Shown here in pieces: positions 17,351-32,000 of a stretch of DNA of 32,000 bases. Each line of letters starts with the position of its first letter. Positions within the stretch are counted from its first letter, which is position 1. The translations under genes were made by a program, and so were the position numbers. A model generated the notes under the pieces. The model saw only the letters and a list, made by a program, of their open reading frames with translations, was not told where the DNA came from and did no database searches. Source of the stretch: Candidatus Saccharimonadota bacterium (GTDB taxonomy: Bacteria > Patescibacteriota > Gracilibacteria > UBA4473); contig JAUIFI010000001.1 of assembly GCA_030429505.1 (NCBI GenBank), positions 991,207-1,023,206 of the forward strand, given 5' to 3'.

Positions 17351-18133
17351 TCAGAGGGGTGATATCAAGTGTAAGAAATGAGAAGGTGAGAGATTTTCAT
17401 ATTGGAGCATAAGAATATCTAGTTTTGACTGAAGCTCTCCATGACGAGTTCCCAACTCAACCGAAAGAGTCTGCTGAGAACGAAAACGAGACTTATTTCT
17501 ACGAATACTTCGATTCAACTCTTGAACGCTATTTTGAATAGGTTCAATCGTATTTCGATAATAAATTTGTTTCAAAGCAACACGAGTTGCTTCCTTTGGA
17601 TCATAGTATGTATAGGCAGCACCAGCAATCCACGAAACAAATGTGTGTTCTTGTAAAACACTATAAGCAGCTTGGCTTATAGAATCAGCAAAAGGAATCT
17701 CCGTATGGGTAAGCGTATACAAAACAGTAGTATCTGTGTCGGGAAGGATTTCCCCCATAACCGCTGATGCTACTATATGGTCGAGACTGTAAGCTTCAAT
17801 TTCCTGCTTGAGTTCATACGCTTTTGTAGCTTGCACTTCCAAATCACTTTCAAGTGAAAGAATATCACGAATGAAATTTGCTTGTTGAATTTCGCACTGA
17901 AGTATCGCAGAATCAAGAATCTCAATAGAATCTTTAACTATACGTATTTCAGACATCAACGAGTCTCGAGCATGCAGATAAGCATGTGATGCTGTACTAT
18001 CCCGCCTCAAGCGCGTTTGTTCCAAAACCAGATAATTATCTGAAACGGAAATCAACGTATAGCATAATATTATAGCAACCAAGACAAATCCGCCCACAAT
18101 AGAAACGGTCAATGAAAGAGATGGTTTGTTCAC
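17351..18133 (-). CDS. membrane-anchored helical hypothetical protein (260 aa)
   Basis: GTG start with GAGGA 8 nt upstream. One N-terminal TM helix, then a long helical, Gln/Glu/Leu-rich region. No family recognised. Confidence 0.6.
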   Translation of the reverse strand: MNKPSLSLTVSIVGGFVLVAIILCYTLISVSDNYLVLEQTRLRRDSTASHAYLHARDSLMSEIRIVKDSIEILDSAILQCEIQQANFIRDILSLESDLEVQATKAYELKQEIEAYSLDHIVASAVMGEILPDTDTTVLYTLTHTEIPFADSISQAAYSVLQEHTFVSWIAGAAYTYYDPKEATRVALKQIYYRNTIEPIQNSVQELNRSIRRNKSRFRSQQTLSVELGTRHGELQSKLDILMLQYENLSPSHFLHLISPL

Positions 18134-18318
18134 AAGACATCCTCACTGTAATTTAAAAATTTCTACCCTTACTGTTCAAGGCAAACAGTATGAAGATAGA
18201 TGATGACTTCAAAGAAAATAAAAATATCTCTTCATAAATAGGAGACTAGCAAGAAATAATAATTTCTCTGTCTCTGTCAAAATGAAACCATAAGATTAAT
18301 TTAATATAAAGATAAGTC

Positions 18319-18341
18319 TACTTCCTTCTTAAGGAAGTAGA
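18319..18341 (-). terminator. putative terminator of the SLH-protein gene
   Basis: Perfect 8-bp hairpin ctacttcc/ggaagtag directly downstream of the minus-strand stop at 18348. The T tract is only weak. Confidence 0.35.
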
Positions 18342-18347
18342 AAATAA

Positions 18348-20360
18348 CTATTTCACATGAACCTGCAAAATATTATGAAAGCGATGAAGTCCTAAATCTC
18401 GATGAGATTTTTTATAGAAAAGATTGGTTTCAACATTGACTATCTGCTTATCAGGATTTTTTCTAACGACAGCACTATACGACACGACTCCATGATTAAA
18501 TTGTAAGCAACGAAACATGTGAGAGTCATGAAGACAATTTTTGTGAAGAGGAAAAGAAGATATCTCGGTAAAAAAACTAGGAAGTTCATGAACCAATCTT
18601 TCTGCTACGTAAGGCTGAGGAAGATCAAATTCAAACGTTATCCCTTCCCCTTCCTTTAGTATTACTGAGTGAGGATTTTCAAAAAAGGCATCTTTGGTTT
18701 TGATACGAAAAGATACAGATTTTTGAAAAACATTATCAAGACCTCCATCTTCATTTTTATCCCATATTTGTTCCGGTGGAATTTCCTCTGAAGAAAAAGA
18801 TGAAAGATTCTGAGGATGAATCGACACCAAAGAAAAAGTATTTTTACCAGTTTTATCAAGAACTAAACCGTAAAGATTTCCAGTTTTTGGATGTATGTGA
18901 AGTTCTTTTACAGAAAATGATAAAGCAAACTGTTGTACCGAAAAATCATTCGTATCAATAACAAAAAGGCGTGAAGAAGCAGAAGTATTGTCAACAACAC
19001 TATATTTTTTCGTTTCAATATTATATACACCGCTCCCACCATAATAACGCTTAAGATCAGGAATAAGAATTTTCTTTTGGATCACCCCACTTCCAAGATT
19101 AAATGATGTAAAGTACATACTATTATCCTGATTCAAAAGCCCATATAGCGTATTGCTTTCTGTATCAATCGCCAATTCTCGCATATCTGGAGGTACGGAA
19201 CGTTGAACTGCCACCTGACCAGTCTGGGGATAGATCATATAGAGCCTAGAAACAAGGTTGGCTTCATAGCCCAAAAGAACATAAGTTTTTGTTTTTGGAT
19301 TATAGGCAGAACTCCCTCCTGTATATGCCTTCATGCTAGGAATAAAAATTCTCCGTTTTACTGTGAAATCTGATAAATCCAAAGAAACAAAATACATATC
19401 AGTTTCAAGATTTTTATTCTCTATCTTACTCACTCGTTCAATACCATAAAGACTATTTGATTCCAGATCGATCTGGAGTTCCATTAATTCTCTGAAAGGT
19501 TTCTGTGTTTCTATATCACCTGCATTCGTATCTATGACATACAATTGTGGCAGACCATCTTTATCATAACCACGAAGTAAGTATTTATCAGTATTGGAGT
19601 TATAGGTTGAACTGCCGCTAATAAAAAAGTTCAAGTCAGGAATAACATCCAGAATAACTTTTGAACTATCTTCTAAAATAGTAGAACCTGTATTTGAATC
19701 GGTATTCGATTCATCTATACGTTCTTGTCCCGCGAATAAATATTGATAGATAGCCACCGCCACTTCATTTCGTGTCAAAAAACGACTTGGTTCTAAATTG
19801 GTAGCACTTCTTTTGGGAAATAAATCATATTTCTCTGCCGCACCAGCAAAAGGTGAAAACCAGTCCTGAAAGGCGACATCATCATAAGCATGATCAATAT
19901 TTTTTGTAATCCCATATGCTTGGGTCATCATCTTTAAAAATTCAGCCGTATTGACTGATCTTTCCGGACGAAAAAAACCATCTGGATAGCCATCGATAAT
20001 ATTTGATTCTGCTGCTTTGAGAACATATGGGGCATACCATTGGTCTCGCAATACATCAAAAAACTGATCATTATCAGTAAACTGACCGGTATCGATTTTT
20101 GCTGAAAGCAATAAAAATTTAGCCGCTTCGGCTCTATTGACCGGACGATTTCCTTTAAATTCTCCATCCGGATAGCCATTAATAATGCCGTGTTCACGAA
20201 GTGTGGTGGCGGCAATCTGCTCTAAGCTTCCTGGCAACATATCAGGAAAGTGAACGACCTGCTGAGTAGTATCTGATGCAGCTTTTCCAACGTGAAAGCT
20301 AAAAGAAATAAGCACTCCCAAGAGGAATGCTCCCATAAATCGAGAAAAAATATTTTGCAT
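18348..20360 (-). CDS. S-layer-homology (3x SLH) surface protein with three repeats of about 95 aa
   Basis: Signal peptide, then three SLH motifs (GIINGYPDGEFKGNRPVNRAEAAKFL; NIIDGYPDGFFRPERSVNTAEFLKMM; TRNEVAVAIYQYL). Three homologous repeats follow (GSSxYNxxTxxY...LYVID/LYMIY/LFVID...SNxLYG). The ATG at 20360 has GAGGA upstream; the track GTG is at 20369. Confidence 0.85.
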   Translation of the reverse strand: MQNIFSRFMGAFLLGVLISFSFHVGKAASDTTQQVVHFPDMLPGSLEQIAATTLREHGIINGYPDGEFKGNRPVNRAEAAKFLLLSAKIDTGQFTDNDQFFDVLRDQWYAPYVLKAAESNIIDGYPDGFFRPERSVNTAEFLKMMTQAYGITKNIDHAYDDVAFQDWFSPFAGAAEKYDLFPKRSATNLEPSRFLTRNEVAVAIYQYLFAGQERIDESNTDSNTGSTILEDSSKVILDVIPDLNFFISGSSTYNSNTDKYLLRGYDKDGLPQLYVIDTNAGDIETQKPFRELMELQIDLESNSLYGIERVSKIENKNLETDMYFVSLDLSDFTVKRRIFIPSMKAYTGGSSAYNPKTKTYVLLGYEANLVSRLYMIYPQTGQVAVQRSVPPDMRELAIDTESNTLYGLLNQDNSMYFTSFNLGSGVIQKKILIPDLKRYYGGSGVYNIETKKYSVVDNTSASSRLFVIDTNDFSVQQFALSFSVKELHIHPKTGNLYGLVLDKTGKNTFSLVSIHPQNLSSFSSEEIPPEQIWDKNEDGGLDNVFQKSVSFRIKTKDAFFENPHSVILKEGEGITFEFDLPQPYVAERLVHELPSFFTEISSFPLHKNCLHDSHMFRCLQFNHGVVSYSAVVRKNPDKQIVNVETNLFYKKSHRDLGLHRFHNILQVHVK

Positions 20361-20706
20361 TATCCTCACTATAAACTGCTTCTCAAAAGAAAAAAAGCCT
20401 GTGAGGTAACAAGCTTTTTTTCATAGTAAATATTTATAAATATTAAAATTACTTCAGTAATGTTAATTTTTCCACCTTCATAAGAATTTCTTTAAGCATC
20501 ACCTGCTTGTGCTTGTTTCACAAATTGAATCAGGCACGCGTTCATTATCTCCGCCTTATCCAACTATACTATAATCTTTAGTGATGGTTGGGAAATGAGC
20601 GTTGGTCATCAGTTCACTCGTATCATAATAAATAAGGAATTGGAAACACTTCCGATACCCATAACTGACAGAAAAAAATGTGCGACATTTTTTTTAAAAT
20701 AAAGAT

Positions 20707-20745
20707 AAAAAAAAACGCCGGAACCTTCTGGGAGAAGGTCCGGCG
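20707..20745 (-). terminator. intrinsic terminator
   Basis: GC-rich 12-bp stem (cgccggaaccttc / gaaggtccggcg, one bulged A), 5-nt loop, followed on the minus strand by T9. Confidence 0.8.
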
Positions 20746-20923
20746 GAGTAATCAAGCTTCCATCCAAACTGAGTAATGAAATCAGTGGAAAACCAGTTTG
20801 AATGGAACATTGCATCGATTGCTTAATCGCGGTAAGCAATCGGCAGCAACAGCAGCAACAAAGGCAGGTTAGCGATAATCACCGTTTATCCGAGAGTCTT
20901 GAATATCAACTCAAACTCCAGGC
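20707..20923 (-). ncRNA. candidate structured small RNA of about 215 nt, class unknown
   Basis: Bounded by a TTGACA-17-TATCTT promoter and a strong intrinsic terminator, both on the minus strand. The interior holds a 10-bp perfect hairpin (20816-20825 with 20833-20842), a 13-bp helix (20761-20774 with 20793-20805) and a tandem 9-mer. No credible ORF. Confidence 0.4.
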
Positions 20924-20929
20924 GCAAAC

Positions 20930-20958
20930 AAGATAAAAAATCCTGTGACACATGTCAA
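20930..20958 (-). promoter_or_regulatory. sigma70-type promoter of the RNA candidate
   Basis: On the minus strand: TTGACA (20958-20953), 17-nt spacer, TATCTT (20935-20930). It lies 30 nt downstream of the ccdA stop. Confidence 0.4.
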
Positions 20959-20987
20959 AGTTTTCTTAAATTTTTATGAAGGACGCT

Positions 20988-21716
20988 TCATTCTTCGAAT
21001 TTTTCCAGAAGTTGTTCTTCGATTTTCGTAACATCAAAATAGTTGTTATCCAGTAGATATGCTTCAAGCTTTTTATCATATCCCGTTAAGATAGCCACTC
21101 CCACAATGAAAAAGAGAACTCCTAGGAGTTTTCGAAACCAGCCATGAGGATTCGCCGCCCAACGAAATCGAGCAATCGCTTTTTGTCCAAAAAAAGCAAT
21201 GATAAACATAACCGAAGCCAAGCCTAATCCATAAGCTAATAAATTGATAAATCCGATAAAAAAGCTCGCTGGAAGTACCGTTGCTAAAATCACAAAATAC
21301 ACTGGACTGCAGCTCGCAAATACTGGACCCAAAGAAGCTCCAATAAGAATCATCCCCCAAACTCCCTTTTTTTGATTCGCTTGAGAAAGAAGCTTACTCG
21401 AACCGTTGCCAAATTTAAATTTCTCAGAGACCTTTTCCCACAGATTGGGGAAAAGCGTAATAATACCAAAGAAAATAATAATCCCTCCAGACAGTCCTTT
21501 CCAAAAGGATCGAGGGATATCAATGAGTAAGGTAGAGGCTTTTAAGAGTAAAGTAAAAAGAATAATTGATCCCCCCAAAGACAACGTAATGATGAGAGGG
21601 CGCCATGGATTTTTATCCGTTAAACTCCCTCCAATCACCACTGGCAATACTGGCAAGACACAGGGCGCCAAGACAGTAAGAATTCCTGCCAAAAATGAGA
21701 GGAGGAGAAAGTCCAT
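20988..21716 (-). CDS. ccdA: CcdA/DsbD-family thiol-disulfide transmembrane electron transporter
   Basis: Polytopic membrane protein with the LAPCVLPVLP motif in TM1 and a second conserved Cys (FASCSPV). Confidence 0.85.
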   Translation of the reverse strand: MDFLLLSFLAGILTVLAPCVLPVLPVVIGGSLTDKNPWRPLIITLSLGGSIILFTLLLKASTLLIDIPRSFWKGLSGGIIIFFGIITLFPNLWEKVSEKFKFGNGSSKLLSQANQKKGVWGMILIGASLGPVFASCSPVYFVILATVLPASFFIGFINLLAYGLGLASVMFIIAFFGQKAIARFRWAANPHGWFRKLLGVLFFIVGVAILTGYDKKLEAYLLDNNYFDVTKIEEQLLEKFEE

Positions 21717-21794
21717 GACCTTTTAAGTGTACAGAAAAAAGGAAAAGAAAAAAGAGGTCATCAAGACCTCTTTTTTCTTAATTACAGTAAAAAT

Positions 21795-22286
21795 TTAGCT
21801 TGAGAAATGTTCGGTAACAACCTCTATAGAAGGATCAGTTGCGATTTTCACAACTTCTCCAGAAGCGTCAAAGAACACAGCTGTTGATTGTTGGGTAACA
21901 CCCAATTCTTGCAGCAACGCTTCTTCGGTATCGTAATCTGCCTTTAAGATGACAGTATTTTCAGGAAGTCGAGCCATAGATTCCATGATTTTCGCCTCCC
22001 AAGCTTTGCATGTTGGGCACCAATCTGCGTGAAAGAATACAACAAAAGGTTGATTCCCTTTGAGTTCTGCCATACTTTCCGCAGAATATTCTTTGTACAT
22101 AGTATTATCTTGCATCATAGCTTCCCCTTTTTCTTCCATAGAACCGTCATTATGCATAGTGTCCTCTTTGTTTATCATAGATTCTTCCATTCCATCAGTA
22201 TTATCAGTAGAAGGGACATGTTGACATCCAACTAAAATTAGACCAAAAACAAGGGTTAAAAGCGTTTTGCTCATCATAAAAAACAT
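21795..22286 (-). CDS. thioredoxin-fold lipoprotein (TlpA/ResA-like) with a Met-rich linker
   Basis: Lipobox LVGC, active site WCPTC within FVVFFHADWCPTCKAW, and an intervening Met/Glu/Asp-rich segment. ATG codons at 22277 and 22274 are alternative starts. Confidence 0.8.
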   Translation of the reverse strand: MFFMMSKTLLTLVFGLILVGCQHVPSTDNTDGMEESMINKEDTMHNDGSMEEKGEAMMQDNTMYKEYSAESMAELKGNQPFVVFFHADWCPTCKAWEAKIMESMARLPENTVILKADYDTEEALLQELGVTQQSTAVFFDASGEVVKIATDPSIEVVTEHFSS

Positions 22287-22362
22287 TAATAGATACGAAC
22301 AAAGTTTATTTTAAAGGAGAAGAAAAAAGGATCAAATTTTTTTAAAGAGAATTTCAGTTGCT

Positions 22363-24654
22363 TCAATCTGAAAGTCCATAAATTTCTCGCGGCTTAGCTC
22401 CTCTTGATGGACCAATGATTCCTCGTCCTTCCATTTGATCTAAGATCCGAGCCGCTCTCGCATAGCCGATTTCAAGCCTTCGTTGTAGGAAACTCGCAGA
22501 AGCTTTATTGGTTTCCAATACCACAAATACAGCATCTTGAAATAAAGGATCGAGATTTTCATCACTCGTAGCTTCTGAACCAGCGGTCAAAACACCTCCT
22601 TTGGCCATTCCTTCAATAGATTGATTGGTAATCTCGTCATTCGCAATCATTTCCGGGAACTGGAGTTTGATGTGATTCGTTACTCGTTCGACTTCTTCAT
22701 TTGATATATAAATCCCTTGAAGGCGTGTAAGTGTTCCACTATTTCCATCGAGATTGAGCATATCTCCAAAGCCCAATAAGTCTTCAGCTCCAATCTGATC
22801 AATAATTGTTCGAGAATCTATTCCCGAAGACACTTTAAAGGCGATTCGTGCTGGTAAATTGGCTTTGATAAGTCCCGTTACGACATCGACAGATGGACGT
22901 TGAGTTGCCACAATTAAATGCATACCGACCGCTCTCGCCATTTGAGCAATTCGACAAATCGCTGCTTCCACGTCTTTCCCTGCTACCATCATCAGATCTG
23001 CTAGCTCATCAATGACAATCACAATAAACGGTTCTTTTTCATCTTTATGTTTGTCATTGTATTCCGTAATATTTCGACACTTAGCTTTCTCAAACAACTT
23101 ATATCGACGATTCATCTCCGCCACAGCCCACGCTAAAGCCGAGACACATTTCTCTGGTTCTACAATTACAGGTGTCAAAAGGTACGGTAAATTATTGTAC
23201 AAAGACAATTCTACTCGCTTTGGATCAACGAGGATGAGTTTGAGTTTGTCTGGAGAGTTTTGCCACAAAAGAGATATCAAAAATGAATTCATCGCCACAG
23301 ATTTTCCAGAACCCGTCTTTCCAGCGATAAGCAAGTGAGGCATTTTTTGAAGATCTGCCACAAAAGGTTTTCCGGCTACATCTCGTCCCAAAGCTAGTTT
23401 GAGGTTCGAATCCGCATCAGCCCAGACATCAGACTCCAAAATTTCCCGCATACCGACAATGGCTCGGTCATCATTTGGTATCTCAATTCCCACCAAAGAT
23501 CGACCTTGAATCGGAGCTTCAATCCGTAAATTTTTCGCAGCCAATGCCAAGGCCAAATCATTCTTGAGAGCAGTAATTTTCGTAAGTTTGATCCCCGCCG
23601 AAGGTTGTAATGTAAATTGTGTCACCGTGGGTCCTACGTGGACAGATTTCATGATGACTTCAATTCCAAATTGTTCTAACTTTTCTCGAATCACCTCGGC
23701 TTTTTGACGAATTTTGGCTTCATCGACCACGATAGTAGAAATTTTCTCTTTTAGTAACTCAATATCTGGCGGCTCCCAAGTGCCGGAAAGTGCCTGATTT
23801 TTCGCTTTCGTTAATTCATCTTCCTTTTCTTCCAGGTCAACTGTGTTGGTTGAAGAAGGTTTGTCTCCGGTGGAATCAATAATTTCCAATTCATTTTTAA
23901 AATGTTGGGCAGCGGGTGTGATTTTTTGCTTGGTATTTGATTTATTGGAAGAAGCATTGTCAGAAATCGGAAGGTCTTTCTGAGGTCGAAATTTCTGTAA
24001 AACATCAGAAATACGAATACCAAAAGCCACCATTCCTGACACCCAGAACAAACCAAAAAGAAGCACCGCCGCTACCGTATCTCCCAAAAATTCACGAGGA
24101 AAAAACCCAATCGCAAATCCCAAAGCTCCACCATATGATTTAGAATCAGCCAGAGAATCTTCTAACGGCACAAATAGATTTAAAAAACCAAGCAGAGACA
24201 CAAAAAAGAGCAAAATGGCAAGGACTCGGGCAGGAGGGAATGTTTTGTCTCGCTGTAATAAAAAAGCCACCCCAATTCCTCCCAGAAAAAGAGGAATCAA
24301 CCATGTCCCCATACCAAAAAGCTTTGCGAGTAATGCGAGAAGTGTAACCGAAAAATCAGTCGTACTAAAAAACAAAGTCACCAAAAAAACAGCCGCTACA
24401 ATCCAGATCACCGCCCAAATTTCCGTTTTCATCGAATCATTCATAAAAGAATCCCACGCTTCATCTGTTTCTTTTTGTTTCGCTACTTTTTTAGCGGCTT
24501 TTTCCTTCGCTTTCATGCGAACAGCTTTTGTTTTTTCTTTCTTTTTTTCATTGTCCAACATCTTTTTAGCCATCTTTTCAGCCTCTTTTTTGAGGATCGA
24601 AGAAGGGATCTTTACTTTTGGCGCAGGCTTTCTCTTGGAAAACATACCCAACAT
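22363..24654 (-). CDS. ftsK: DNA translocase FtsK/SpoIIIE
   Basis: N-terminal TM domain, Walker A GKTGSGKS, Walker B VIVIDELADL, and a C-terminal gamma winged-helix (SFLQRRLEIGYARAARILDQME). Confidence 0.95.
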   Translation of the reverse strand: MLGMFSKRKPAPKVKIPSSILKKEAEKMAKKMLDNEKKKEKTKAVRMKAKEKAAKKVAKQKETDEAWDSFMNDSMKTEIWAVIWIVAAVFLVTLFFSTTDFSVTLLALLAKLFGMGTWLIPLFLGGIGVAFLLQRDKTFPPARVLAILLFFVSLLGFLNLFVPLEDSLADSKSYGGALGFAIGFFPREFLGDTVAAVLLFGLFWVSGMVAFGIRISDVLQKFRPQKDLPISDNASSNKSNTKQKITPAAQHFKNELEIIDSTGDKPSSTNTVDLEEKEDELTKAKNQALSGTWEPPDIELLKEKISTIVVDEAKIRQKAEVIREKLEQFGIEVIMKSVHVGPTVTQFTLQPSAGIKLTKITALKNDLALALAAKNLRIEAPIQGRSLVGIEIPNDDRAIVGMREILESDVWADADSNLKLALGRDVAGKPFVADLQKMPHLLIAGKTGSGKSVAMNSFLISLLWQNSPDKLKLILVDPKRVELSLYNNLPYLLTPVIVEPEKCVSALAWAVAEMNRRYKLFEKAKCRNITEYNDKHKDEKEPFIVIVIDELADLMMVAGKDVEAAICRIAQMARAVGMHLIVATQRPSVDVVTGLIKANLPARIAFKVSSGIDSRTIIDQIGAEDLLGFGDMLNLDGNSGTLTRLQGIYISNEEVERVTNHIKLQFPEMIANDEITNQSIEGMAKGGVLTAGSEATSDENLDPLFQDAVFVVLETNKASASFLQRRLEIGYARAARILDQMEGRGIIGPSRGAKPREIYGLSD

Positions 24655-24834
24655 TATACCCTAAAAAAGTATAAAATAATATTGACAAAAGTGTGCAAAT
24701 ATTTTAAAAACAAATTAGTTCTTTCATATGTTCTGCTTTTTTCTTACCAAAAAAAGAAATATGAAGCCACCGATGTGCTGATTGAGCATCGGCAGGTCGG
24801 TGACTTATATATTTTCGAATTTGTGAGGTATCTT

Positions 24835-25191
24835 ATGTATAAACACATATCCGACCAAGCATCAAAGAAATTCTCATTCACTTACCGAATGGATGAATTC
24901 CACGTAATCCATGTGATTACAGTTGCGATTTCATCGAATTTGATCGATGAAAAAGTTTTTAACTTGATGCGAAACAATAAAAAAATAATTTGGCAGATGG
25001 TAGAACCGCTAGCCAAAGAAGCAGTCAAGGCTTTTGTTCAAAACTCGGATCTGAACGATGATCTGCGATTTCATGAGTCGCAAGAAATCTGTCTGGCAGG
25101 ACTCTCAGAAAAGTTTGACGTAACGTCTCTGGGAACTTGTGCTTGGTGGACAGAATCGATCGAATGGGAAGAGCAGGAATTGTGTAGCTAA
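24835..25191 (+). CDS. hypothetical protein (118 aa)
   Basis: The track ORF 24475..25191 is trimmed to the ATG at 24835 (GAGG 7 nt upstream) because its 5' part is antisense to ftsK. No family recognised. Confidence 0.45.
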   Translation: MYKHISDQASKKFSFTYRMDEFHVIHVITVAISSNLIDEKVFNLMRNNKKIIWQMVEPLAKEAVKAFVQNSDLNDDLRFHESQEICLAGLSEKFDVTSLGTCAWWTESIEWEEQELCS

Positions 25192-25220
25192 TAATGCGAC
25201 ACAAGAAATAACGTATTGTA

Positions 25221-25258
25221 GGGAGATATGCAGAATATCTGTGTATCTCTCTTTTTTT
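25221..25258 (+). terminator. intrinsic terminator
   Basis: Stem gggagata/tatctctc (with a G-U pair), followed by T7. It overlaps the 3' end of the convergent mutY-like gene. Confidence 0.5.
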
Positions 25259-26333
25259 ACGTTTTCATTTCCATCAACCTTTCCAACACCTTCTCATTCG
25301 CTTCCAAAAAATTAACTTTACCAAAATCCACTGGTGAGACCCAATCGAGCTTTTGCTTTTCCAAAGGCTGGGGCTCACCTTTCTGAATTTGACACCGATG
25401 AAAGCGAAGACGCAAGTGGACTTTTTCGAATTCATGTTCCTCTTCAAAAAAATGAGGTCTTACAGACACCTCAATCCCCAATTCTTCCAAAATTTCCCGC
25501 TTTACACACGCTCGAAAATCTTCGCCTTTTTCTCGTTTTCCACCTGGAAATTCCCACTTACCTTCAAAGCTTTTGCCTTTGGGGCGGCTTTGGATGAGGT
25601 ATTTTCCGTTTCGATGAATACACGCGATACCCACCTCAATGGTATGTTTTTTACTTTTCCCACTCTTCTTTTTGCTCTTTTGATTTAAAGAAGTGCGTTT
25701 AATGTTTCGAGTAGGTATAAATTTTGATGCTATTTGTGGCGGAAAAAATTGTCCTAACTCTCCTTTGATATCATCTCCATTTCGTAACGCTGTTGCCAAA
25801 TCCATCATAGCATTATTCCAATCTCGACCAGACGGACTGGCATAGACTAAGGTTTGCGCCATAGTTTCAACTTTTTCGCGAGACCATAAGATCTGAATGA
25901 TTTTAGTAATATTCGTGTCAATCGCTGGCACTTTTTTATCAAAAGCAAAGGCTAAGATCGCCCGAGCTGTATACTGACCAATACCGGGGAGTTGTTGCAA
26001 CTCAGTTGCATTAAGAGGAAATTGTCCGTCATGTTTCTGCACTATAATCTGAGCTGCTTTCAAAATATTCTTCCCTCGACGATAATATCCCAACCCCTTC
26101 CAACACGGAAAAACATCTTCCCACGTTGCTTTCGCCAAATCCTGAATGGTTGGAAAACGTTTCAAAAAATTTGGATAGAAATACTCTTTCACTCGGTTAA
26201 CCTGAGTTTGTTGAAGCATAATCTCAGAGATCCATATCTTGTACGGATCAATAGTTTCTCTCCAGGGAAGTTTACGACCATAGTCTTGATACCACCCCAA
26301 AAGGAGCTTGGTAAATGTAGCAGGCTCTTTCAT
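25257..26333 (-). CDS. mutY: MutY-type adenine DNA glycosylase fused to a MutT-type Nudix hydrolase domain
   Basis: N-terminal HhH-GPD region (EIMLQQTQV, LPGIGQYTARAIL, AIDTNI). A Lys-rich linker (KSKKKSGKSKKH). The C-terminal domain has a complete Nudix box GGKREKGEDFRACVKREILEELGI. ATG 26333 is preferred; the track TTG is at 26372. Confidence 0.85.
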   Translation of the reverse strand: MKEPATFTKLLLGWYQDYGRKLPWRETIDPYKIWISEIMLQQTQVNRVKEYFYPNFLKRFPTIQDLAKATWEDVFPCWKGLGYYRRGKNILKAAQIIVQKHDGQFPLNATELQQLPGIGQYTARAILAFAFDKKVPAIDTNITKIIQILWSREKVETMAQTLVYASPSGRDWNNAMMDLATALRNGDDIKGELGQFFPPQIASKFIPTRNIKRTSLNQKSKKKSGKSKKHTIEVGIACIHRNGKYLIQSRPKGKSFEGKWEFPGGKREKGEDFRACVKREILEELGIEVSVRPHFFEEEHEFEKVHLRLRFHRCQIQKGEPQPLEKQKLDWVSPVDFGKVNFLEANEKVLERLMEMKT

Positions 26334-26393
26334 AATCACTTCTTTTCTACTGGAAGAGAGTCTGAAAATCAATGTTAGATTTTCTTTTTAATC

Positions 26394-27377
26394 CTACGGA
26401 GCAATAAAGAAAAACATAATCGTCCAAGCAGAAAAAGCTAAGATAAGACCTATGATGGAAGCCACCACGATCCGTTTTGCTTCTTCGGTCGCTTCATCAT
26501 TAATACCAAAATTAAGCATCAGTCGTATTCCAGCCCAGATCAAAGATATAACAGCAATCACACCAATCACACCAAGAATAAAATTAATCCAGTCTATCAA
26601 AAATGCAATCGTACCAGTAATCTCTGGAACAGCGAGTTCTCTCGTGGTTTTCCCAACGCCCGCTTCTGAATAAAATCCTCTATTGTTGGTAAATAAATCA
26701 ATTATTTTTTGTGCCGAAACCAAAATAACCATCCCAATCGACGCAAAGAGAATTTGCTTTCGGAAGGTGGATAGTGCTTCCTGGTTGTCCGAACCTGCCA
26801 TAATAAGTCTGATTGAGGCGAAAATTACGAATCCTACAGCCACCGCTACTGCAAAGGTAAGAAGATAATTAAATATTCCTTGGAGTTCTGTAAAGCCACG
26901 ACTAGCAAATTCAACTGAATCATTCTCATGTAAAATTTCACCTTCGCTTCCAAAGAAGATAGAGTCTACAGCCACTACTGACAGTAAGATAATCGCAAAA
27001 CCCAAGGCAACACTGAGAATCATTTGCTTTTTTTCGTTGTAAACTTCTTCTTTTCCACGAGAAGCTATAAGTTGAACCCCTCCCCAAGCAATAAGAATAA
27101 TAGAAATGGGGATAAGAAATTTATGCAAGTAATCACGAAGAATATCAACGATAATACGAAACTGAAATTCTCCTCGATCACTTTTGGTTAAAGAATTTTC
27201 TACCCGAAACGTATAATCCTTCAGATATTCACTCCCATACTTACTATTAAAAAATAAATCTTCTGGATCATTGCTAAAGATGGGTTGGTTCGTCAAAGAA
27301 TTCGTTTGAGCCAAAGCATCTCCACCTCCAAATGAGAGGAATGGAAGTATGAAAAGAGTCAGAAAAAATATCTTCAT
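26394..27377 (-). CDS. membrane protein with three VirB2/TrbC-like two-helix modules (327 aa)
   Basis: Signal peptide, then three repeats of TM helix, short acidic/polar loop, TM helix. Examples of the loop regions are IAWGGVQLIASRGKEE.., FASIRLIMAGSDNQEA.. and LIWAGIRLMLNFGINDEA... Confidence 0.7.
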   Translation of the reverse strand: MKIFFLTLFILPFLSFGGGDALAQTNSLTNQPIFSNDPEDLFFNSKYGSEYLKDYTFRVENSLTKSDRGEFQFRIIVDILRDYLHKFLIPISIILIAWGGVQLIASRGKEEVYNEKKQMILSVALGFAIILLSVVAVDSIFFGSEGEILHENDSVEFASRGFTELQGIFNYLLTFAVAVAVGFVIFASIRLIMAGSDNQEALSTFRKQILFASIGMVILVSAQKIIDLFTNNRGFYSEAGVGKTTRELAVPEITGTIAFLIDWINFILGVIGVIAVISLIWAGIRLMLNFGINDEATEEAKRIVVASIIGLILAFSAWTIMFFFIAP

Positions 27378-28282
27378 CGAATGAAAAAAGTAATGATGAT
27401 AAAGCTAGAAAGGGCTGTGACAATACCAATGACAGAAGCCATAACCATGCTTTTGGCTCGTTTCGTTTGGTCTTCGCTACCAAAACTCGATACAAAATAT
27501 AAACTTGATAAAATGAGCATAATAGTGGCTGCCACAGCCAGAAAAGAAAGAATAAAATTAATAATTCCGAGTATTTCACTATTAGCCGTTAGCTCCGCAC
27601 TACGAGGATCAGCATTACTCAAGACACGAACAATAACCTCTGACATAAGGATAAAAACCACACCTAATACAAAAGAACGAATGAATTTTTTTTCATTCGA
27701 AATAGTCTCGTCATTTTCTCCTCCCGTGATAAGGGCATATCCCGAGATAGCAAGATACACCAGCATAATACCAGTAATAATGATCTGAAAGAAGGTTTTA
27801 ATCTGATTAATCTTGCTTCCCAAATTTGCCATGATAAAAGAGCTTTGTTCGACATCTATTTTCGGGTTTGCTGGATCAACAAGTTGAAACGCAACAAACT
27901 CTGCCACAGATATAACAGCAAGTCCTAAGATTAGCCATCCAAACTGAGCTTTGAGCTTACTCATTTTTTCTTCCTCCCCCTGAGCAAAAATAAATCGAGC
28001 TCCCAAAACTACAAGGAGTAAAATAGCCGCTCCCCCCAAAAATATATTTACTCTCGTAATGAGATCATTTTTTCGATCATCTTTTCTTTGGAAAAGTGTC
28101 CTAATGGCATTTTCAGTTCCTTCATCGAAACCATCATCAATAACACTCTGTACAATATTATCCCTTATGATAGGGGCATAATTTCCACTAGGAAGTGGAA
28201 GCGTATTGATGTCTTGAGCAAAACTTCCCCCAGCTCCACAGACAGAAAAGGCAAGAAAGAAAGTAAAAATCAACGTTTTCAT
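27374..28282 (-). CDS. membrane protein with three VirB2/TrbC-like two-helix modules, paralog (about 302 aa)
   Basis: Same architecture as the downstream gene, and its stop overlaps that gene's start by 4 nt. The start is placed at ATG 28282 (MKTLIFTFFLAF...) because a TTGAGA-17-TATAAT promoter lies inside the longer track ORF (..28351). Confidence 0.68.
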   Translation of the reverse strand: MKTLIFTFFLAFSVCGAGGSFAQDINTLPLPSGNYAPIIRDNIVQSVIDDGFDEGTENAIRTLFQRKDDRKNDLITRVNIFLGGAAILLLVVLGARFIFAQGEEEKMSKLKAQFGWLILGLAVISVAEFVAFQLVDPANPKIDVEQSSFIMANLGSKINQIKTFFQIIITGIMLVYLAISGYALITGGENDETISNEKKFIRSFVLGVVFILMSEVIVRVLSNADPRSAELTANSEILGIINFILSFLAVAATIMLILSSLYFVSSFGSEDQTKRAKSMVMASVIGIVTALSSFIIITFFIR

Positions 28283-28289
28283 TCTTCCC

Positions 28290-28318
28290 ATTATACCAGA
28301 AAAAAGCACTTTTCTCAA
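28290..28318 (-). promoter_or_regulatory. sigma70-type promoter, possibly producing a leaderless mRNA
   Basis: On the minus strand: TTGAGA (28318-28313), 17 nt, TATAAT (28295-28290). The ATG at 28282 lies 7 nt after the -10 box. Confidence 0.45.
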
Positions 28319-28370
28319 ATATCTTTGCCAGTATTCATGGTTATTTGACAAACGTACAACGGCTTATAAA

Positions 28371-28643
28371 ATGGGGCGGCTTTTATGTTCTTTTTTGTTC
28401 GTGGTTATGATAGCGTGGCTTCTTATTCCTCTTGGCGTCGTAATGATTGTCAAAGCCGATAAAATCGTAAGTTTTACCGGCGAGATTCCTTTTGCAGAAA
28501 AAGTATTTGGATCTGGAGGAACCTACACATTCGTAAAAGTTCTGGGCTTACTTATGTCCATTTTTGCATTTATGTGGGTCTTTGGAGGACTGGATAGTTT
28601 TCTCCAAGCCACACTCGGAAAGTTTATTCCCGGTTCACAGTAG
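28371..28643 (+). CDS. small membrane protein (90 aa, two TM helices)
   Basis: Two hydrophobic helices. Divergent from the pilin-like pair. The start is uncertain; an in-frame ATG at 28407 is an alternative. Confidence 0.5.
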   Translation: MGRLLCSFLFVVMIAWLLIPLGVVMIVKADKIVSFTGEIPFAEKVFGSGGTYTFVKVLGLLMSIFAFMWVFGGLDSFLQATLGKFIPGSQ

Positions 28644-28718
28644 TTTTTTTACTATTACACATCGAAGACATTCGTTTTCAATGTGAGAGGAGTAGACGAT
28701 GAAGTATAAACTGACGAC

Positions 28719-28795
28719 GGGGCTATAGCTCAGCTGGCTAGAGCACCTGCTTTGCAAGCAGGGGGTCCAGGGTTCGAATCCCTGTAGCTCCACCA
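28719..28795 (+). tRNA. tRNA-Ala (anticodon UGC), CCA encoded
   Basis: I folded the cloverleaf by hand: acceptor GGGGCUA/UAGCUCC, anticodon arm CCUGC-UUUGCAA-GCAGG, T arm CAGGG-UUCGAAU-CCCUG, G3:U70 present, 3' ACCA. Confidence 0.95.
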
Positions 28796-28875
28796 AGAAA
28801 AAATCTGTGGAAAACCACAAAACTTTAAACTCCATTTAAGCAAAAAACGAAATAAAAAAGCGACTTAGCGACCAC

Positions 28876-28950
28876 GGGTTGGTAGCTCAGTGGTAGAGCA
28901 GTGGCCTTTTAAGCCATTGGCCGTGGGTTCGAACCCCACCCAACCCACCA
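28876..28950 (+). tRNA. tRNA-Lys (anticodon UUU), CCA encoded
   Basis: Acceptor GGGUUGG/CCAACCC, anticodon arm GUGGC-CUUUUAA-GCCAU, T arm GUGGG-UUCGAAC-CCCAC, 3' ACCA. Confidence 0.95.
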
Positions 28951-29103
28951 GAGTAAAAAAGTGTCAGGCGTGTCCTGATGATTTTTTGCCTTGTTTTTTT
29001 CAGAATAAAAAAATAGCATACCCACCAATGTGTGGTTAACATGCTACAAATAATACGAAGCCACAATAATTCTCCATTGAGTGTGTGTCGTATTGCCACG
29101 ATG

Positions 29104-29364
29104 TTAATCGATTTTTCGATCCTTTGTATCTTCATCAAGAGGCTTGGCCGGTTCGTTGTCTAGGCCTGTCCAATCCAAGTGGATCTTGCCATTTTTGTCG
29201 GCTTCTTTGGTTCTGTCCCTGATTGTGGATTCTACTCTGGCCCACGTATCGGGTGTGATTTTCTCCCGAACGATATTGCCATTTTCGTCGGAGCCGACAA
29301 AGTAGGCGTTGATTTTAGGATGCTTGCCGTCCGATTCAAACGGAATCAGTTTCCGCTGTGCCAT
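29104..29364 (-). CDS. small acidic hypothetical protein, paralog 1 (86 aa)
   Basis: Starts MAQRK at ATG 29364; the longer track ORF would include the promoter. Shares the MAQxK N-terminus, a central D(E/N)xGN region and the C-terminal LDW(T/S)GLDN(E/N)PA motif with the 29476..29748 product. Confidence 0.55.
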   Translation of the reverse strand: MAQRKLIPFESDGKHPKINAYFVGSDENGNIVREKITPDTWARVESTIRDRTKEADKNGKIHLDWTGLDNEPAKPLDEDTKDRKID

Positions 29365-29392
29365 AAAGTGTGTAGTTAACAAATGCACACAA

Positions 29393-29421
29393 ATCTTAGC
29401 ACAAAAATGGACAGATGTCAA
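29393..29421 (-). promoter_or_regulatory. promoter of small paralog 1
   Basis: On the minus strand: TTGACA (29421-29416), 17 nt, TAAGAT (29398-29393). The conserved 5'UTR block TTTGTTAACtACAC follows. Confidence 0.45.
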
Positions 29422-29475
29422 GTTCGTTCGTAGAGTCCATCCACAAAAGAGTGAATGGTCGAGTTGTGTGTTAAC

Positions 29476-29748
29476 TCAGGCCGGATTGTTGTCGAGACCC
29501 GACCAGTCAAGCTCAATCTTGCTATTGGCAGTTGACTTTTTTTCTACAAGGTCTTGATTGTCACTTTCTGTCCGAGTATCGTGAGCGCTTTCCGATATTG
29601 CAATGTTGTCCGAGACTTTCTTGCGTGTGTCTTCTTTCACAATCTGAAAAATTCGATTGCCGTGATTATCAACTCTTTCGATTGTTGTAGTTGACGTATT
29701 AACATCGTCGCCGTTTTCAGACAGAGATCTGATCTTAAATTGTGCCAT
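29476..29748 (-). CDS. small acidic hypothetical protein, paralog 2 (90 aa)
   Basis: MAQFK start and ELDWSGLDNNPA C-terminus. See paralog 1. Confidence 0.55.
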   Translation of the reverse strand: MAQFKIRSLSENGDDVNTSTTTIERVDNHGNRIFQIVKEDTRKKVSDNIAISESAHDTRTESDNQDLVEKKSTANSKIELDWSGLDNNPA

Positions 29749-29780
29749 AGATAGTGAGTGTGGTTAACAAATAAAAATAG

Positions 29781-29809
29781 ATGTTAGTATTAAAATACGA
29801 ATATGTCAA
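29781..29809 (-). promoter_or_regulatory. promoter of small paralog 2
   Basis: On the minus strand: TTGACA (29809-29804), 17 nt, TAACAT (29786-29781). The conserved 5'UTR block TTTGTTAACcACAC follows. Confidence 0.45.
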
Positions 29810-30400
29810 GTAAGTTTATGAAGTTCATTTACCCCAACTATGGCTGATCGAAGTGAAAAAAATCGGAAGGAAGCGGGCTCCTAAAAAGAAGTGGAAAATA
29901 ATGTTCCTCATAAAAACACTCCAAAAGATTAAAAAATGAAGCTTGATACAAGTAATCAAGCTGTGACTATATTTATAAGTTTACATGACATTATTTCATG
30001 TATACATAATCTTTGTGGTGACATGTAAAAGAACGAAATGCTTTTAAAAAAGCCGAAGAAATATAAAGAAAAAAAAGATTTCTTCAACCATAAATAACTT
30101 TTATATACCTAGAATATGACAGGTTTTTTGATGAAATTATGAAAAAATTCAAACAATAGTTAGTAATGTTTTATGCATTTGAAAAATAGTCAATTAAAAA
30201 TATTCAAAAAAGAGAGTCAATATATTTGTTTCTGTTTTTCGTATTTGCCCTTTAAAAAAGGCGTTTTTTTTGGTACAATAATCCCGCATATTCGGTGCGT
30301 TTTAAAATGGTGTTGTACGTAAATGAAAAGCATAGGATAAAGGTGACTTTGATAATCTCTGACAACGGTTTTCCGAATTGTTTATACTGAAACTTCTTCT

Positions 30401-32000
30401 ATGGTTTTCAAAAAAATAGTTGCACACCCTACAAAAAAAGATATCTGTTGGCTAGGAAGAATAGTAAAGTCTTTAGCTTTTGCATTGACTGTTTGGGTTG
30501 CTTTTTTGAGTAATGTCCAATACTCATATGCTTTTGCAGGTGGAGACGGATCAGTAGGAGATCCCTACCAGATATCGACTTGTTCGGAGCTACAAGATAT
30601 GAAGGATAATCTATCTTCAAATTTTATTCTGATAAAACCTATCGACTGTAGCGCCACTTCTGGTTGGAATAGTGGAAATGGATTTATTCCTGTGGGAGAT
30701 TCTATTACGGCTTTTACGGGAACCCTTGACGGAAAAGGATATACAATTGATAGTCTCTTTATCGATCGAGGATCTACGAATGATGTGGGACTCTTTGGTC
30801 GAGCTAGCGGGGCGACCATCAAATCTGTAGGACTCACTAACGCTGATATTAAAGGATCTACCAGAACAGGAGGAATTGCAGGGTATGCACTACAGTCGGC
30901 AGACATAGATCAGGTCTATGTTACAGGAACGATAAGAGGAAATGGATCGATTGATGAGGTGGGAGGTATTTTAGGAAGGATGAATACGTCTTCAACTCTT
31001 GATGATGCTTATTCTACAGCTACTATAAGTGCTACCAGTGCAGGAGAGGTTGGTGGGGCTATTGGGCAAATTACCAACTCGGCTATTATCACTAACGCTT
31101 ATGCAGTAGGGAGTGTTGCTTTGGGGGGACTTGGTGGAGGAAGTTTTATAGGAGATACGGGGACTGGAACGACTGTTCAAGATTCTTTTGCAACAGGTAG
31201 TATTTCGGGGGGGCTTAATACTGCAGGGTTTGGTGGAGACCATGCGGGTACATTTACGAATATTCACTGGGATTCTACAAGAACCGGGGAATTAACTTGT
31301 TATCAAGGTGGAAGTACTGGCTGTACAGACCATGGAGGAACTTATTGGTTTAATACCTCCAGTAATGCTCCTATGGATCAATGGGACTTTACGAATATTT
31401 GGCAGACTGTTTCAGACAGCTATCCAGTATTCAAGGATGTAGCAAAACCTGCTATCATGAGTGGAACCTTGGCTGCTGATAATAGCTATGTAGACGTAGT
31501 GTTTAGTGAAGGAGTGTATGATACCAATGGAGGTTCCGGTGCCTTGGAAACAGGAGATTTAGCACTGACTTTCACTCAAAATGGTGGAGGAGTTACGAAT
31601 GTAACGATCAGTAGTGTGAAGCAGAATGATAATGCAGTAGAAGGGAGTGCATCAGCGTTGGCCGGAGGAGAGACTACAGTCCGAGTTTTTCTCAATGTTA
31701 CAGGTAGTTCTACTGGCGTTGAGACAATCGAAATAACACCAACCGACAGTACTTCAATCTACGATGCAGTCGGAAATGCCTCGGATCATACACTGCAGAC
31801 GACAGGATTGCTTTCTATGGCTGATGGTCTAGTACCAACAATTGATAGTGGGACACTGGCGGGGAACAATGGGTACGTGGACGTAGTGATGAGTGAAGGA
31901 GTGTATAATACGAATGGAGGAAGCGGAGCATTGGAGACAACGGACCTTACAATCACATTCGTGCAAAATGGAGGGAATGCAACAAACGCCACGATCAGTA
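30401..32000 (+). CDS. large secreted GLUG-motif surface protein with tandem Ig-like repeats (5' partial, continues past the window end)
   Basis: Absent from the supplied ORF track. I translated it by hand and checked the frame at several coordinates, finding an uninterrupted frame from ATG 30401 to 32000 (more than 533 codons). It has a signal peptide (..VWVAFLSNVQYSYAFA), then GDGSVGDPYQISTCSELQDM...FTGTLDGKGYTIDSLFI...VGLFG...GGIAG repeats typical of GLUG beta-helix regions, then 129-aa repeats. Confidence 0.8.
   Translation, partial: MVFKKIVAHPTKKDICWLGRIVKSLAFALTVWVAFLSNVQYSYAFAGGDGSVGDPYQISTCSELQDMKDNLSSNFILIKPIDCSATSGWNSGNGFIPVGDSITAFTGTLDGKGYTIDSLFIDRGSTNDVGLFGRASGATIKSVGLTNADIKGSTRTGGIAGYALQSADIDQVYVTGTIRGNGSIDEVGGILGRMNTSSTLDDAYSTATISATSAGEVGGAIGQITNSAIITNAYAVGSVALGGLGGGSFIGDTGTGTTVQDSFATGSISGGLNTAGFGGDHAGTFTNIHWDSTRTGELTCYQGGSTGCTDHGGTYWFNTSSNAPMDQWDFTNIWQTVSDSYPVFKDVAKPAIMSGTLAADNSYVDVVFSEGVYDTNGGSGALETGDLALTFTQNGGGVTNVTISSVKQNDNAVEGSASALAGGETTVRVFLNVTGSSTGVETIEITPTDSTSIYDAVGNASDHTLQTTGLLSMADGLVPTIDSGTLAGNNGYVDVVMSEGVYNTNGGSGALETTDLTITFVQNGGNATNATIS
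31460..32000 (+). repeat. tandem 387-nt (129-codon) coding repeat within the GLUG protein gene
   Basis: Unit 1 (31460-31846) starts SGTLAADNSYVDVVFSEGVYDTNGGSGALETGDLALTFTQNGG. Unit 2 starts at 31847 with SGTLAGNNGYVDVVMSEGVYNTNGGSGALETTDLTITFVQNGG. The block agtgaaggagtgtat recurs at 31505 and 31892. Confidence 0.7.

Follow-up and report, generated by a model that had tools for sequence, protein, structure and literature searches.

The final 32 kb of the genome of a Candidatus Saccharimonadota bacterium raise the question of whether two short open reading frames (ORFs), lying one behind the other on the minus strand beside a tRNA-Lys gene, are real genes, and what their products and common upstream sequences may be for. 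The stretch in question (assembly GCA_030429505.1, contig JAUIFI010000001.1, positions 991,207 to 1,023,206, numbered here from its first letter; its full 32,000 nt are called the window) had been described in a first-pass annotation, according to which the two ORFs are paralogues that share a promoter type, a box in the 5' untranslated region and a C-terminal motif. The present analysis indicates that the ORFs, named gene A and gene B, are very probably two real genes that code for small cytoplasmic proteins, have a promoter each and are probably expressed well, and that the locus is a lineage-private orphan module.

Both minus-strand ORFs, of 90 and 86 amino acids (aa), were found where the annotation had placed them. 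Their products matched each other in a BLASTP comparison with an E value of 3e-8 and 31% identity, which bears out the proposed paralogy, and the alignment contained all the shared elements listed earlier, namely the MAQ(F/R)K start, the D(N/E)xGN(R/I) segment and the (E/H)LDW(S/T)GLDN(N/E)PA motif. The invariant columns fell into five groups: the M-A-Q-x-K start, G13, the D-x-x-G-N turn, D-T-x3-V-x3-I and N-x-K-I-x-L-D-W-x-G-L-D-N-x-P-A, the conserved columns being concentrated in the turn, on a helix face and in the C-terminal motif. This motif is the C-terminal end of protein A and is followed by 13 residues in protein B. The tail of protein B (KPLDEDTKDRKID) had been given as 11 residues long and acidic; apart from its different length, it is weakly acidic, with five acidic and four basic residues. 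The W-x-G triplet of the motif occupies residues 82-84 of 90 in protein A and 65-67 of 86 in protein B. The description of the whole proteins as acidic was correct, their isoelectric points (pI) being acidic to mildly acidic, and both proteins are hydrophilic (grand average of hydropathy, GRAVY, of -1.0 and -1.17) and free of any hydrophobic segment.

The mode of divergence between the two genes was examined in the 73 aligned A/B codons, in which identity at the first, second and third codon positions was 0.51, 0.64 and 0.34, respectively. The nonsynonymous divergence (dN) amounted to 0.67 and the synonymous divergence (dS) to about 2.4, a saturated value, with dN/dS of about 0.28. Nearly half of the identical residues (13 of 27) were encoded by different codons, among them L, D, G and L inside LDWxGLD and I, L, D, G and L inside the longer K-I-x-L-D-W-x-G-L-D, and each of the three indels between A and B was a multiple of three. 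Because dS is saturated and identical residues are carried by different codons, selection acts on the proteins. The codon pattern together with the in-frame indels therefore rules out a non-coding repeat and likewise recent gene conversion as the source of the motif. As judged from these substitutions, A and B are protein-coding genes under purifying selection and old tandem duplicates.

Each gene has its own predicted promoter of the TTGACA-17-TAA(C/G)AT type, as had been reported, and these two are the best sigma-70-like sites of the region. In the 1.02-Mb genome, TTGACA-N17-TAnnAT occurs at only 14 sites, promoters A and B among them. A terminator-like hairpin with a T-run (28978-28964) lies beyond gene B and serves tRNA-Lys on the opposite strand as well. 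No terminator-like site was found behind gene A, so transcription from promoter A probably continues into gene B. The predicted leaders are 20-24 nt long, consist mostly of the shared box and are predicted to be unpaired. The absence of a Shine-Dalgarno (SD) sequence, pointed out earlier for both genes, is real but is no special feature of the locus, since the lack of SD sequences is the norm of this genome: SD-like tetramers precede only about 8% of the long ORFs genome-wide and GGAG is depleted 0.57-fold upstream of start codons. In the 30 nt ahead of start codons, TATA-like words were enriched about 2-fold. Taken together, the SD depletion and the TATA-like enrichment point to short or absent leaders throughout the genome.

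The box shared by the two leaders is 15 nt long, ATTTGTTAACYACAC (ATTTGTTAAC(C/T)ACAC), and its first base lies no more than about 2 nt from the predicted transcription start. Its distance from the -10 hexamer had been given as exactly 12 nt; TTTGTTAAC starts at 9 nt, 12 nt being the distance to GTTAAC. The presence of the same box in both leaders and of an orphan third copy (GTTAACCACAC, 29030-29040) was confirmed, and a fourth, shorter copy was recognised. GTTAACNACAC occurs three times in the 1,023,206-bp genome, each time at this locus. Out of 59 genomic GTTAAC sites, four lie within these 740 bp, and nowhere else in the genome do three or more cluster; the Poisson P is 1.3e-7 per scan window and becomes about 0.017 when the duplicated pair counts as one and a correction for all scan windows is applied. 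Boxes A and B are identical at 14 of 15 positions, as compared with 55% identity in the other upstream columns (P 0.002, uncorrected). It is the extra copies and the genome-wide uniqueness, not the pairwise conservation, by itself only suggestive, that make the case for the box beyond chance. Between box and ATG the two units differ by a 4-nt indel, which shifts the box into different frames; its conservation is therefore one of nucleotides and not of codons.

The third copy had been interpreted as the trace of a decayed third unit. The 3' tail of the locus, in the 44 nt around this copy, aligned weakly with the promoter/leader region of unit B, with a score of 35 vs 21.8 ± 4.2 in shuffled sequences, 4 of 300 shuffles being as good, which lends this interpretation modest support; the -35 and -10 hexamers are gone, however, and no coding remnant is present. 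The copy itself has stayed intact in surroundings that are for the most part decayed. GTTAAC as such is rare in the genome, with 59 sites observed vs about 327 expected from base composition. Restriction avoidance was considered as a reason and rejected, as a maximal-order Markov model shows no specific depletion of the hexamer, and no claim of restriction-modification is made. The most avoided palindromes genome-wide were GGATCC, GCGCGC and CGGCCG.

Table 1. Coordinates of the features of the gene A/gene B locus in the window.
Feature	Position	Strand	Remarks
Gene A	29476..29748	-	90 aa, pI 4.9 (4.89); C-terminal end ...KIELDWSGLDNNPA
Gene B	29104..29364	-	86 aa, pI 5.7 (5.68); motif KIHLDWTGLDNEPA, then 13-aa tail
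Promoter A (predicted)	29781..29809	-	TTGACA (29809-29804), 17 nt, TAACAT (29786-29781); 10/12 consensus positions
Promoter B (predicted)	29393..29421	-	TTGACA (29421-29416), 17 nt, TAAGAT (29398-29393), TG before -10; 10/12 consensus positions
Leader box A	29758..29772	-	ATTTGTTAACCACAC; 9 nt after -10 hexamer; predicted unpaired
Leader box B	29370..29384	-	ATTTGTTAACTACAC; same distance from -10 as in unit A; predicted unpaired
Third box copy	29030..29041	-	TGTTAACCACAC; 12/12 identical to unit A; without promoter hexamers or ORF; in 3' region of gene B
Fourth box copy	29466..29475	-	GTTAACACAC; one base shorter; directly after the TGA stop of gene A
Bidirectional terminator-like hairpin with T-run	28962..28980	both	common to gene B (-) and tRNA-Lys (+); terminator scan, fold of 3' region
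tRNA-Lys (UUU)	28876..28950	+	convergent neighbour; context, outside the unit

Two observations concern the coding sequences themselves. Gene B contains an internal hairpin repeat, ADKNGKI and SDENGNI (29182-29201 and 29272-29291), in which 18 of 20 nt are identical, so that it is much better conserved as DNA than the A/B paralogy. Genes A and B share one reading frame and are parted by a single TGA and 37 sense codons, which hold promoter B (29365-29478). A fusion of A and B by read-through of this TGA was rejected: TGA ends 97 of the 555 long ORFs, and reading it as a sense codon inflates the open frames beyond the length of the genome. The linker produced by such read-through would contain a promoter and looks non-protein-like, and the shared frame was judged a coincidence.

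AlphaFold2 models of both proteins were computed from an alignment of the two sequences only and are of low confidence. In the model of protein A (predicted local distance difference test, pLDDT, of 44), strands were predicted at residues 21-26 and 32-37 and a helix at 39-53; in that of protein B (pLDDT 51), strands at 5-9, 19-25 and 31-35 and a helix at 38-58. Common to both are one or two N-terminal strands, a hairpin at the D-x-x-G-N turn and a helix of 15-20 residues with the D-T-x3-V-x3-I face. The C-terminal third with the motif remained unmodelled, with low confidence, in both, and the I-x-L-x-W alternation within the motif suggests a beta-strand. A Foldseek search with the better model returned nothing (best E value 0.78).

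The explanation that we favour, with a confidence a little above even, is that A and B are ancient tandem duplicates of one lineage-specific gene, are regulated together and code for hydrophilic, acidic, cytoplasmic proteins of about 10 kDa that bind a partner. The start of either transcript would coincide with, or lie beside, the 15-nt box, a G-poor and unstructured sequence absent from the rest of the genome, which would serve as a shared cis-regulatory element tying both genes to one signal. Each protein would consist of a mini-domain, made of a beta-hairpin round the D-x-x-G-N turn and an amphipathic helix with D-T-x3-V-x3-I, followed by a linker of variable length and by the best-conserved segment, K-I-x-L-D-W-[ST]-G-L-D-N-x-P-A. 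The I-x-L-x-W strand may either complete the domain or dock on a common partner by strand addition; in the case of docking, the two paralogues would act on one partner as alternative adaptors or modulators and would differ from each other in their linkers and tails. We propose only tentatively that the C-terminal strand motif is a functional contact with a common partner and that the paralogues are set apart by their variable linker and tail. The coupling of both genes to one regulatory input through the shared box was given an even chance.

Several points weigh against this explanation. The genes have no orthologues, and selection was deduced from one paralogue pair in one genome. The pairwise conservation of the box falls to a P of about 0.12 after window correction, in an upstream region that is 55% identical overall, and no candidate regulator or partner was identified. 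With pLDDT values of only 44 and 51 for the models and no Foldseek match, both the proposed domain structure and the reading of the C-terminal segment as a docking motif are weak.

Two modes of action of the box were considered. In the first, with a probability just short of even, it would be a DNA operator overlapping the start of transcription, and the third and fourth copies would be auxiliary sites; in the second, which carries rather more doubt, it would be an RNA leader element that acts on SD-independent translation and its initiation or on mRNA stability. CA-rich unstructured translational enhancers occur in SD-less or leaderless mRNAs, and the leaders and first codons of A and B resemble them in being G-poor, CA-rich (AACYACAC...AUGGCACA) and predicted to be unpaired, in a genome poor in SD sequences. 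Upstream of the genes of this genome, however, ACAC is enriched only 1.5-fold. The full 15-nt box is private to the locus, which is more in keeping with a specific regulator than with a general enhancer. In function, the nearest analogue of the arrangement is the E. coli cspA family, whose small, mostly beta-stranded paralogues have strong promoters of their own and share a 5'-untranslated-region 'cold box' near the 5' end of the transcript. Like these genes, A and B are paralogues each with its own strong promoter and a common short box near the 5' end, consistent with one signal, but the likeness is one of analogy and not of homology: there is no match to the cold-shock domain and no relation in sequence or fold, the two boxes have unrelated sequences, the leaders measure 20-24 nt as compared with about 160 nt in the cspA family, and further box copies are present 3' of A and B.

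Searches for relatives of A and B gave uniformly negative results. Pfam, PHROGs, NCBIfam and PADLOC contained no match for either protein at E values up to 10, Rfam contained none for the locus, and a profile search of the PDB with the pair yielded nothing significant. A word-indexed search of 5.8 billion clusters returned the query alone. In an exhaustive HMMER search of 1.84 billion representatives, A and B themselves were accompanied only by two long repeat proteins, whose similarity is confined to the V-D-x-x-G-N hairpin and adds up over 8-12 repeats. Among 60 relatives no homologue was found, the best match being out of frame within a ThiE-like gene. At the DNA level, back-translated patterns had no match in the contigs of GTDB genomes and IMG/VR, a degenerate pattern for LDW[ST]GLDNxPA had none in metagenome and genome contigs, promoter-plus-box and box-plus-ATG patterns had none in metagenome and viral contigs, and tblastn had none in 50,697 phage records and 72,556 plasmids. 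The metagenome search that had been proposed for LDWxGLDNxPA and the box thus revealed no copies elsewhere, and the statement that A and B belong to no recognised family was upheld by the profile libraries and the exhaustive protein search alike. The sole other record of the locus was an identical 2.9-kb Logan contig from one sequencing run, which offers no population variation. A search of the bacterium's own genome gave no homologue beyond the pair. It brought up a secreted Asn/Thr-rich protein of 512 aa (genome positions 768547-770085), in which LTLEWGALDNNSA / ...DILTLEWGALDNNSANG... resembles the C-terminal motif of A and B with an E value of 0.24; this resemblance was judged to be probably due to chance.

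In these respects the pair is similar to the ORFan small-protein genes of reduced genomes of the Candidate Phyla Radiation (CPR)/Patescibacteria type, which are short, code for hydrophilic proteins and have no database relative, and the 1-Mb genome that contains it is rich in lineage-specific surface and pilus genes. It differs from a single unsupported ORFan in that an old paralogue in the same genome shows purifying selection and both copies carry a private cis-element. If the favoured explanation is true, the locus would be a self-contained lineage-private regulatory module in an ultra-small genome, coding for a family without relatives among about 15 billion predicted proteins. It would help to distinguish genuine orphan genes from spurious annotations in uncultured bacteria with reduced genomes, and its C-terminal peptide and 15-nt box would be concrete binding targets. 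The wider importance is limited, as a single genome is concerned and no major open question is touched.

Among the other explanations, the one that survived best holds that the pair is a horizontally acquired cassette, e.g., from an unsampled phage or plasmid, which landed by the tRNA-Lys gene; it bears on the origin and the functional class of the pair and partly overlaps the favoured explanation. Small acidic orphan proteins of such a kind are often anti-defence or host-takeover proteins. In line with an acquisition, no homologue is present in the 60 relatives; the tRNA-Ala/tRNA-Lys pair is kept across the family, its downstream neighbour changes from genus to genus, and at the syntenic sites in other genera no downstream gene resembles A or B. 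Among size-matched coding chunks, gene B ranks in the top 1% by GC content at third codon positions (GC3, 0.55) and in the top 3% by GC content, and the codon usage of both genes lies at the 5th-7th percentile of typicality. Ribosomal-protein genes and the EF-Tu gene have ordinary GC3 values (0.25-0.38), so that expression does not account for the bias. Moreover, GTTAAC, rare elsewhere in the genome, is clustered at the locus.

Gene A, on the other hand, is compositionally ordinary (GC3 of 0.43, top 10%; GC in the top 24%), and the earlier remark that the region is GC-rich, compared with the size-matched coding chunks, held for gene B only. A Pfam scan of ten neighbouring ORFs (17351-28643 and 30401-31999) gave no match to an integrase or mobility gene, no direct repeat of the tRNA-Lys 3' end was found within 1.5 kb (28600-30450), and the phage, plasmid, IMG/VR, PHROGs and PADLOC searches described above were empty; the suggestion that a position next to a tRNA gene marks acquired DNA was not borne out by these results. 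The element comprises only two small genes, and its neighbours are T4SS-pilin-like genes, mutY, ftsK and the gene of a giant surface protein. With the paralogue dS saturated, the pair had already diverged if it was acquired together. A foreign origin is thus weakly supported, carries no positive mobility signal and was considered unlikely.

A possibility with far less in its favour is that each protein is an NHL-type blade (PF01436), i.e., a free-standing beta-propeller-blade unit that forms a homo- or hetero-oligomeric propeller. The elements D-x-x-G-N-[IV] and L-x-W-x-G-L-x-x-P (L-x-[WF]-x-G-L-x-x-P in NHL blades) stand in the order expected of one blade. The profile of the pair matched the designed NHL-derived propeller Pizza6-SFW (PDB 6f0t) with an E value of 0.11, 'SKIELDWSGLDN.P' being aligned with 'TQTVLPWTGLNTP', and protein A scored 52 against two Pizza blades vs 22.9 ± 4.8 in shuffles. 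The Pizza match, however, rests on a designed Trp and on five weak repeats summed. Against a hidden Markov model (HMM) of 74 natural NHL blades from the same phylum, A and B reached 2.2 and 0.8 bits, respectively, and 76 and 87 of 2000 shuffles were as good (about 4%), so the match to natural blades is not significant. PF01436 itself gave nothing above threshold in this genome (one unrelated site, E value 0.26) and nothing in the Pfam scan, and the low-confidence models place a long helix of 15-20 residues mid-protein, where a blade needs strands. We regard a blade fold as very improbable, and the same low probability applies to the idea that single- or half-blade subunits, building a toroid only by oligomerisation, would represent the 'ancestral blade' stage proposed for propeller evolution, preserved as two co-regulated paralogues; the weak match to the designed propeller is all that speaks for this idea.

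It was also considered whether the ORFs are untranslated and a duplicated non-coding RNA, or repeat DNA, accounts for the conserved elements. The absence of homologues and the conserved non-coding elements that flank the ORFs would fit such an origin. The third codon position is, however, the least conserved of the three, synonymous replacement has taken place beneath identical residues, both frames have stayed open over 86-90 codons despite about 70% divergence with indels that are all multiples of three, and the Rfam search was empty. An untranslated locus is accordingly hardly credible.

Least probable of all, WXG100-like (ESAT-6/EsxA-type, PF06013) secretion substrates would share with A and B a size of about 90-100 aa, acidity, pairing and a W-x-G, here W-[ST]-G in both proteins, and an FtsK/SpoIIIE gene lies 5 kb away. 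No WXG100 match was obtained in the Pfam scan up to an E value of 10 or in NCBIfam, however; the W-x-G is C-terminal and not in a central helix-turn-helix, the low-confidence models consist of strands and a single helix, and the only FtsK-family gene in the window codes for four-transmembrane (4TM), alpha and gamma domains with a single ATPase/motor domain, that is, for a chromosomal translocase and not for the EssC/EccC ATPase of a type VII secretion system (T7SS). A tandem type I toxin-antitoxin locus of the Ldr/Rdl or Ibs/Sib type, whose toxins are hydrophobic and under about 60 aa, was rejected on the length of the proteins (86-90 aa), their GRAVY values and the lack of a hydrophobic stretch, and precursors of ribosomally synthesised and post-translationally modified peptides (RiPPs) were rejected as no maturation enzyme or transporter is found among the neighbours, the conserved part is C-terminal and gene A ends in the motif.

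The window is the final 32 kb of a single contig of 1,023,206 bp with 38.7% GC and a completeness of 94.7%. A plus-strand ORF for a GLUG-motif surface protein (from 30401) runs off the end of the contig and stays open at its beginning, with a total length of 3,382 aa; this uninterrupted frame demonstrates that the contig is a closed circle. This giant, adhesin-like gene is divergent from the small genes and lies past an AT-rich gap of 590 bp. On the minus strand, the neighbours are two genes similar to pilins of type IV secretion systems (T4SS), a MutY-Nudix gene and the canonical ftsK, and on the plus strand a gene for a 90-aa membrane protein is followed by tRNA-Ala (28719-28795) and tRNA-Lys (28876-28950). 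The placement of A and B immediately downstream of tRNA-Lys is correct as far as adjacency goes; the tRNA genes are, however, on the plus strand, opposite to A and B, which converge on them.

Upstream of promoter A, a candidate small RNA or micro-protein gene was noticed on the minus strand (29928-30087). It has a promoter-like TTGAAG-16-TATATT (30087-30060) and, about 100 nt further on, a clean terminator (29962-29940 and a T-run). The stretch between this site and the terminator folds better than shuffled sequences, with a z-score of -2.25 and 4 of 200 shuffles as good, and the same region includes an ORF for a hydrophobic 43-aa peptide, MKKSFFSLYFFGFF..., at 29956-30087 (minus strand).

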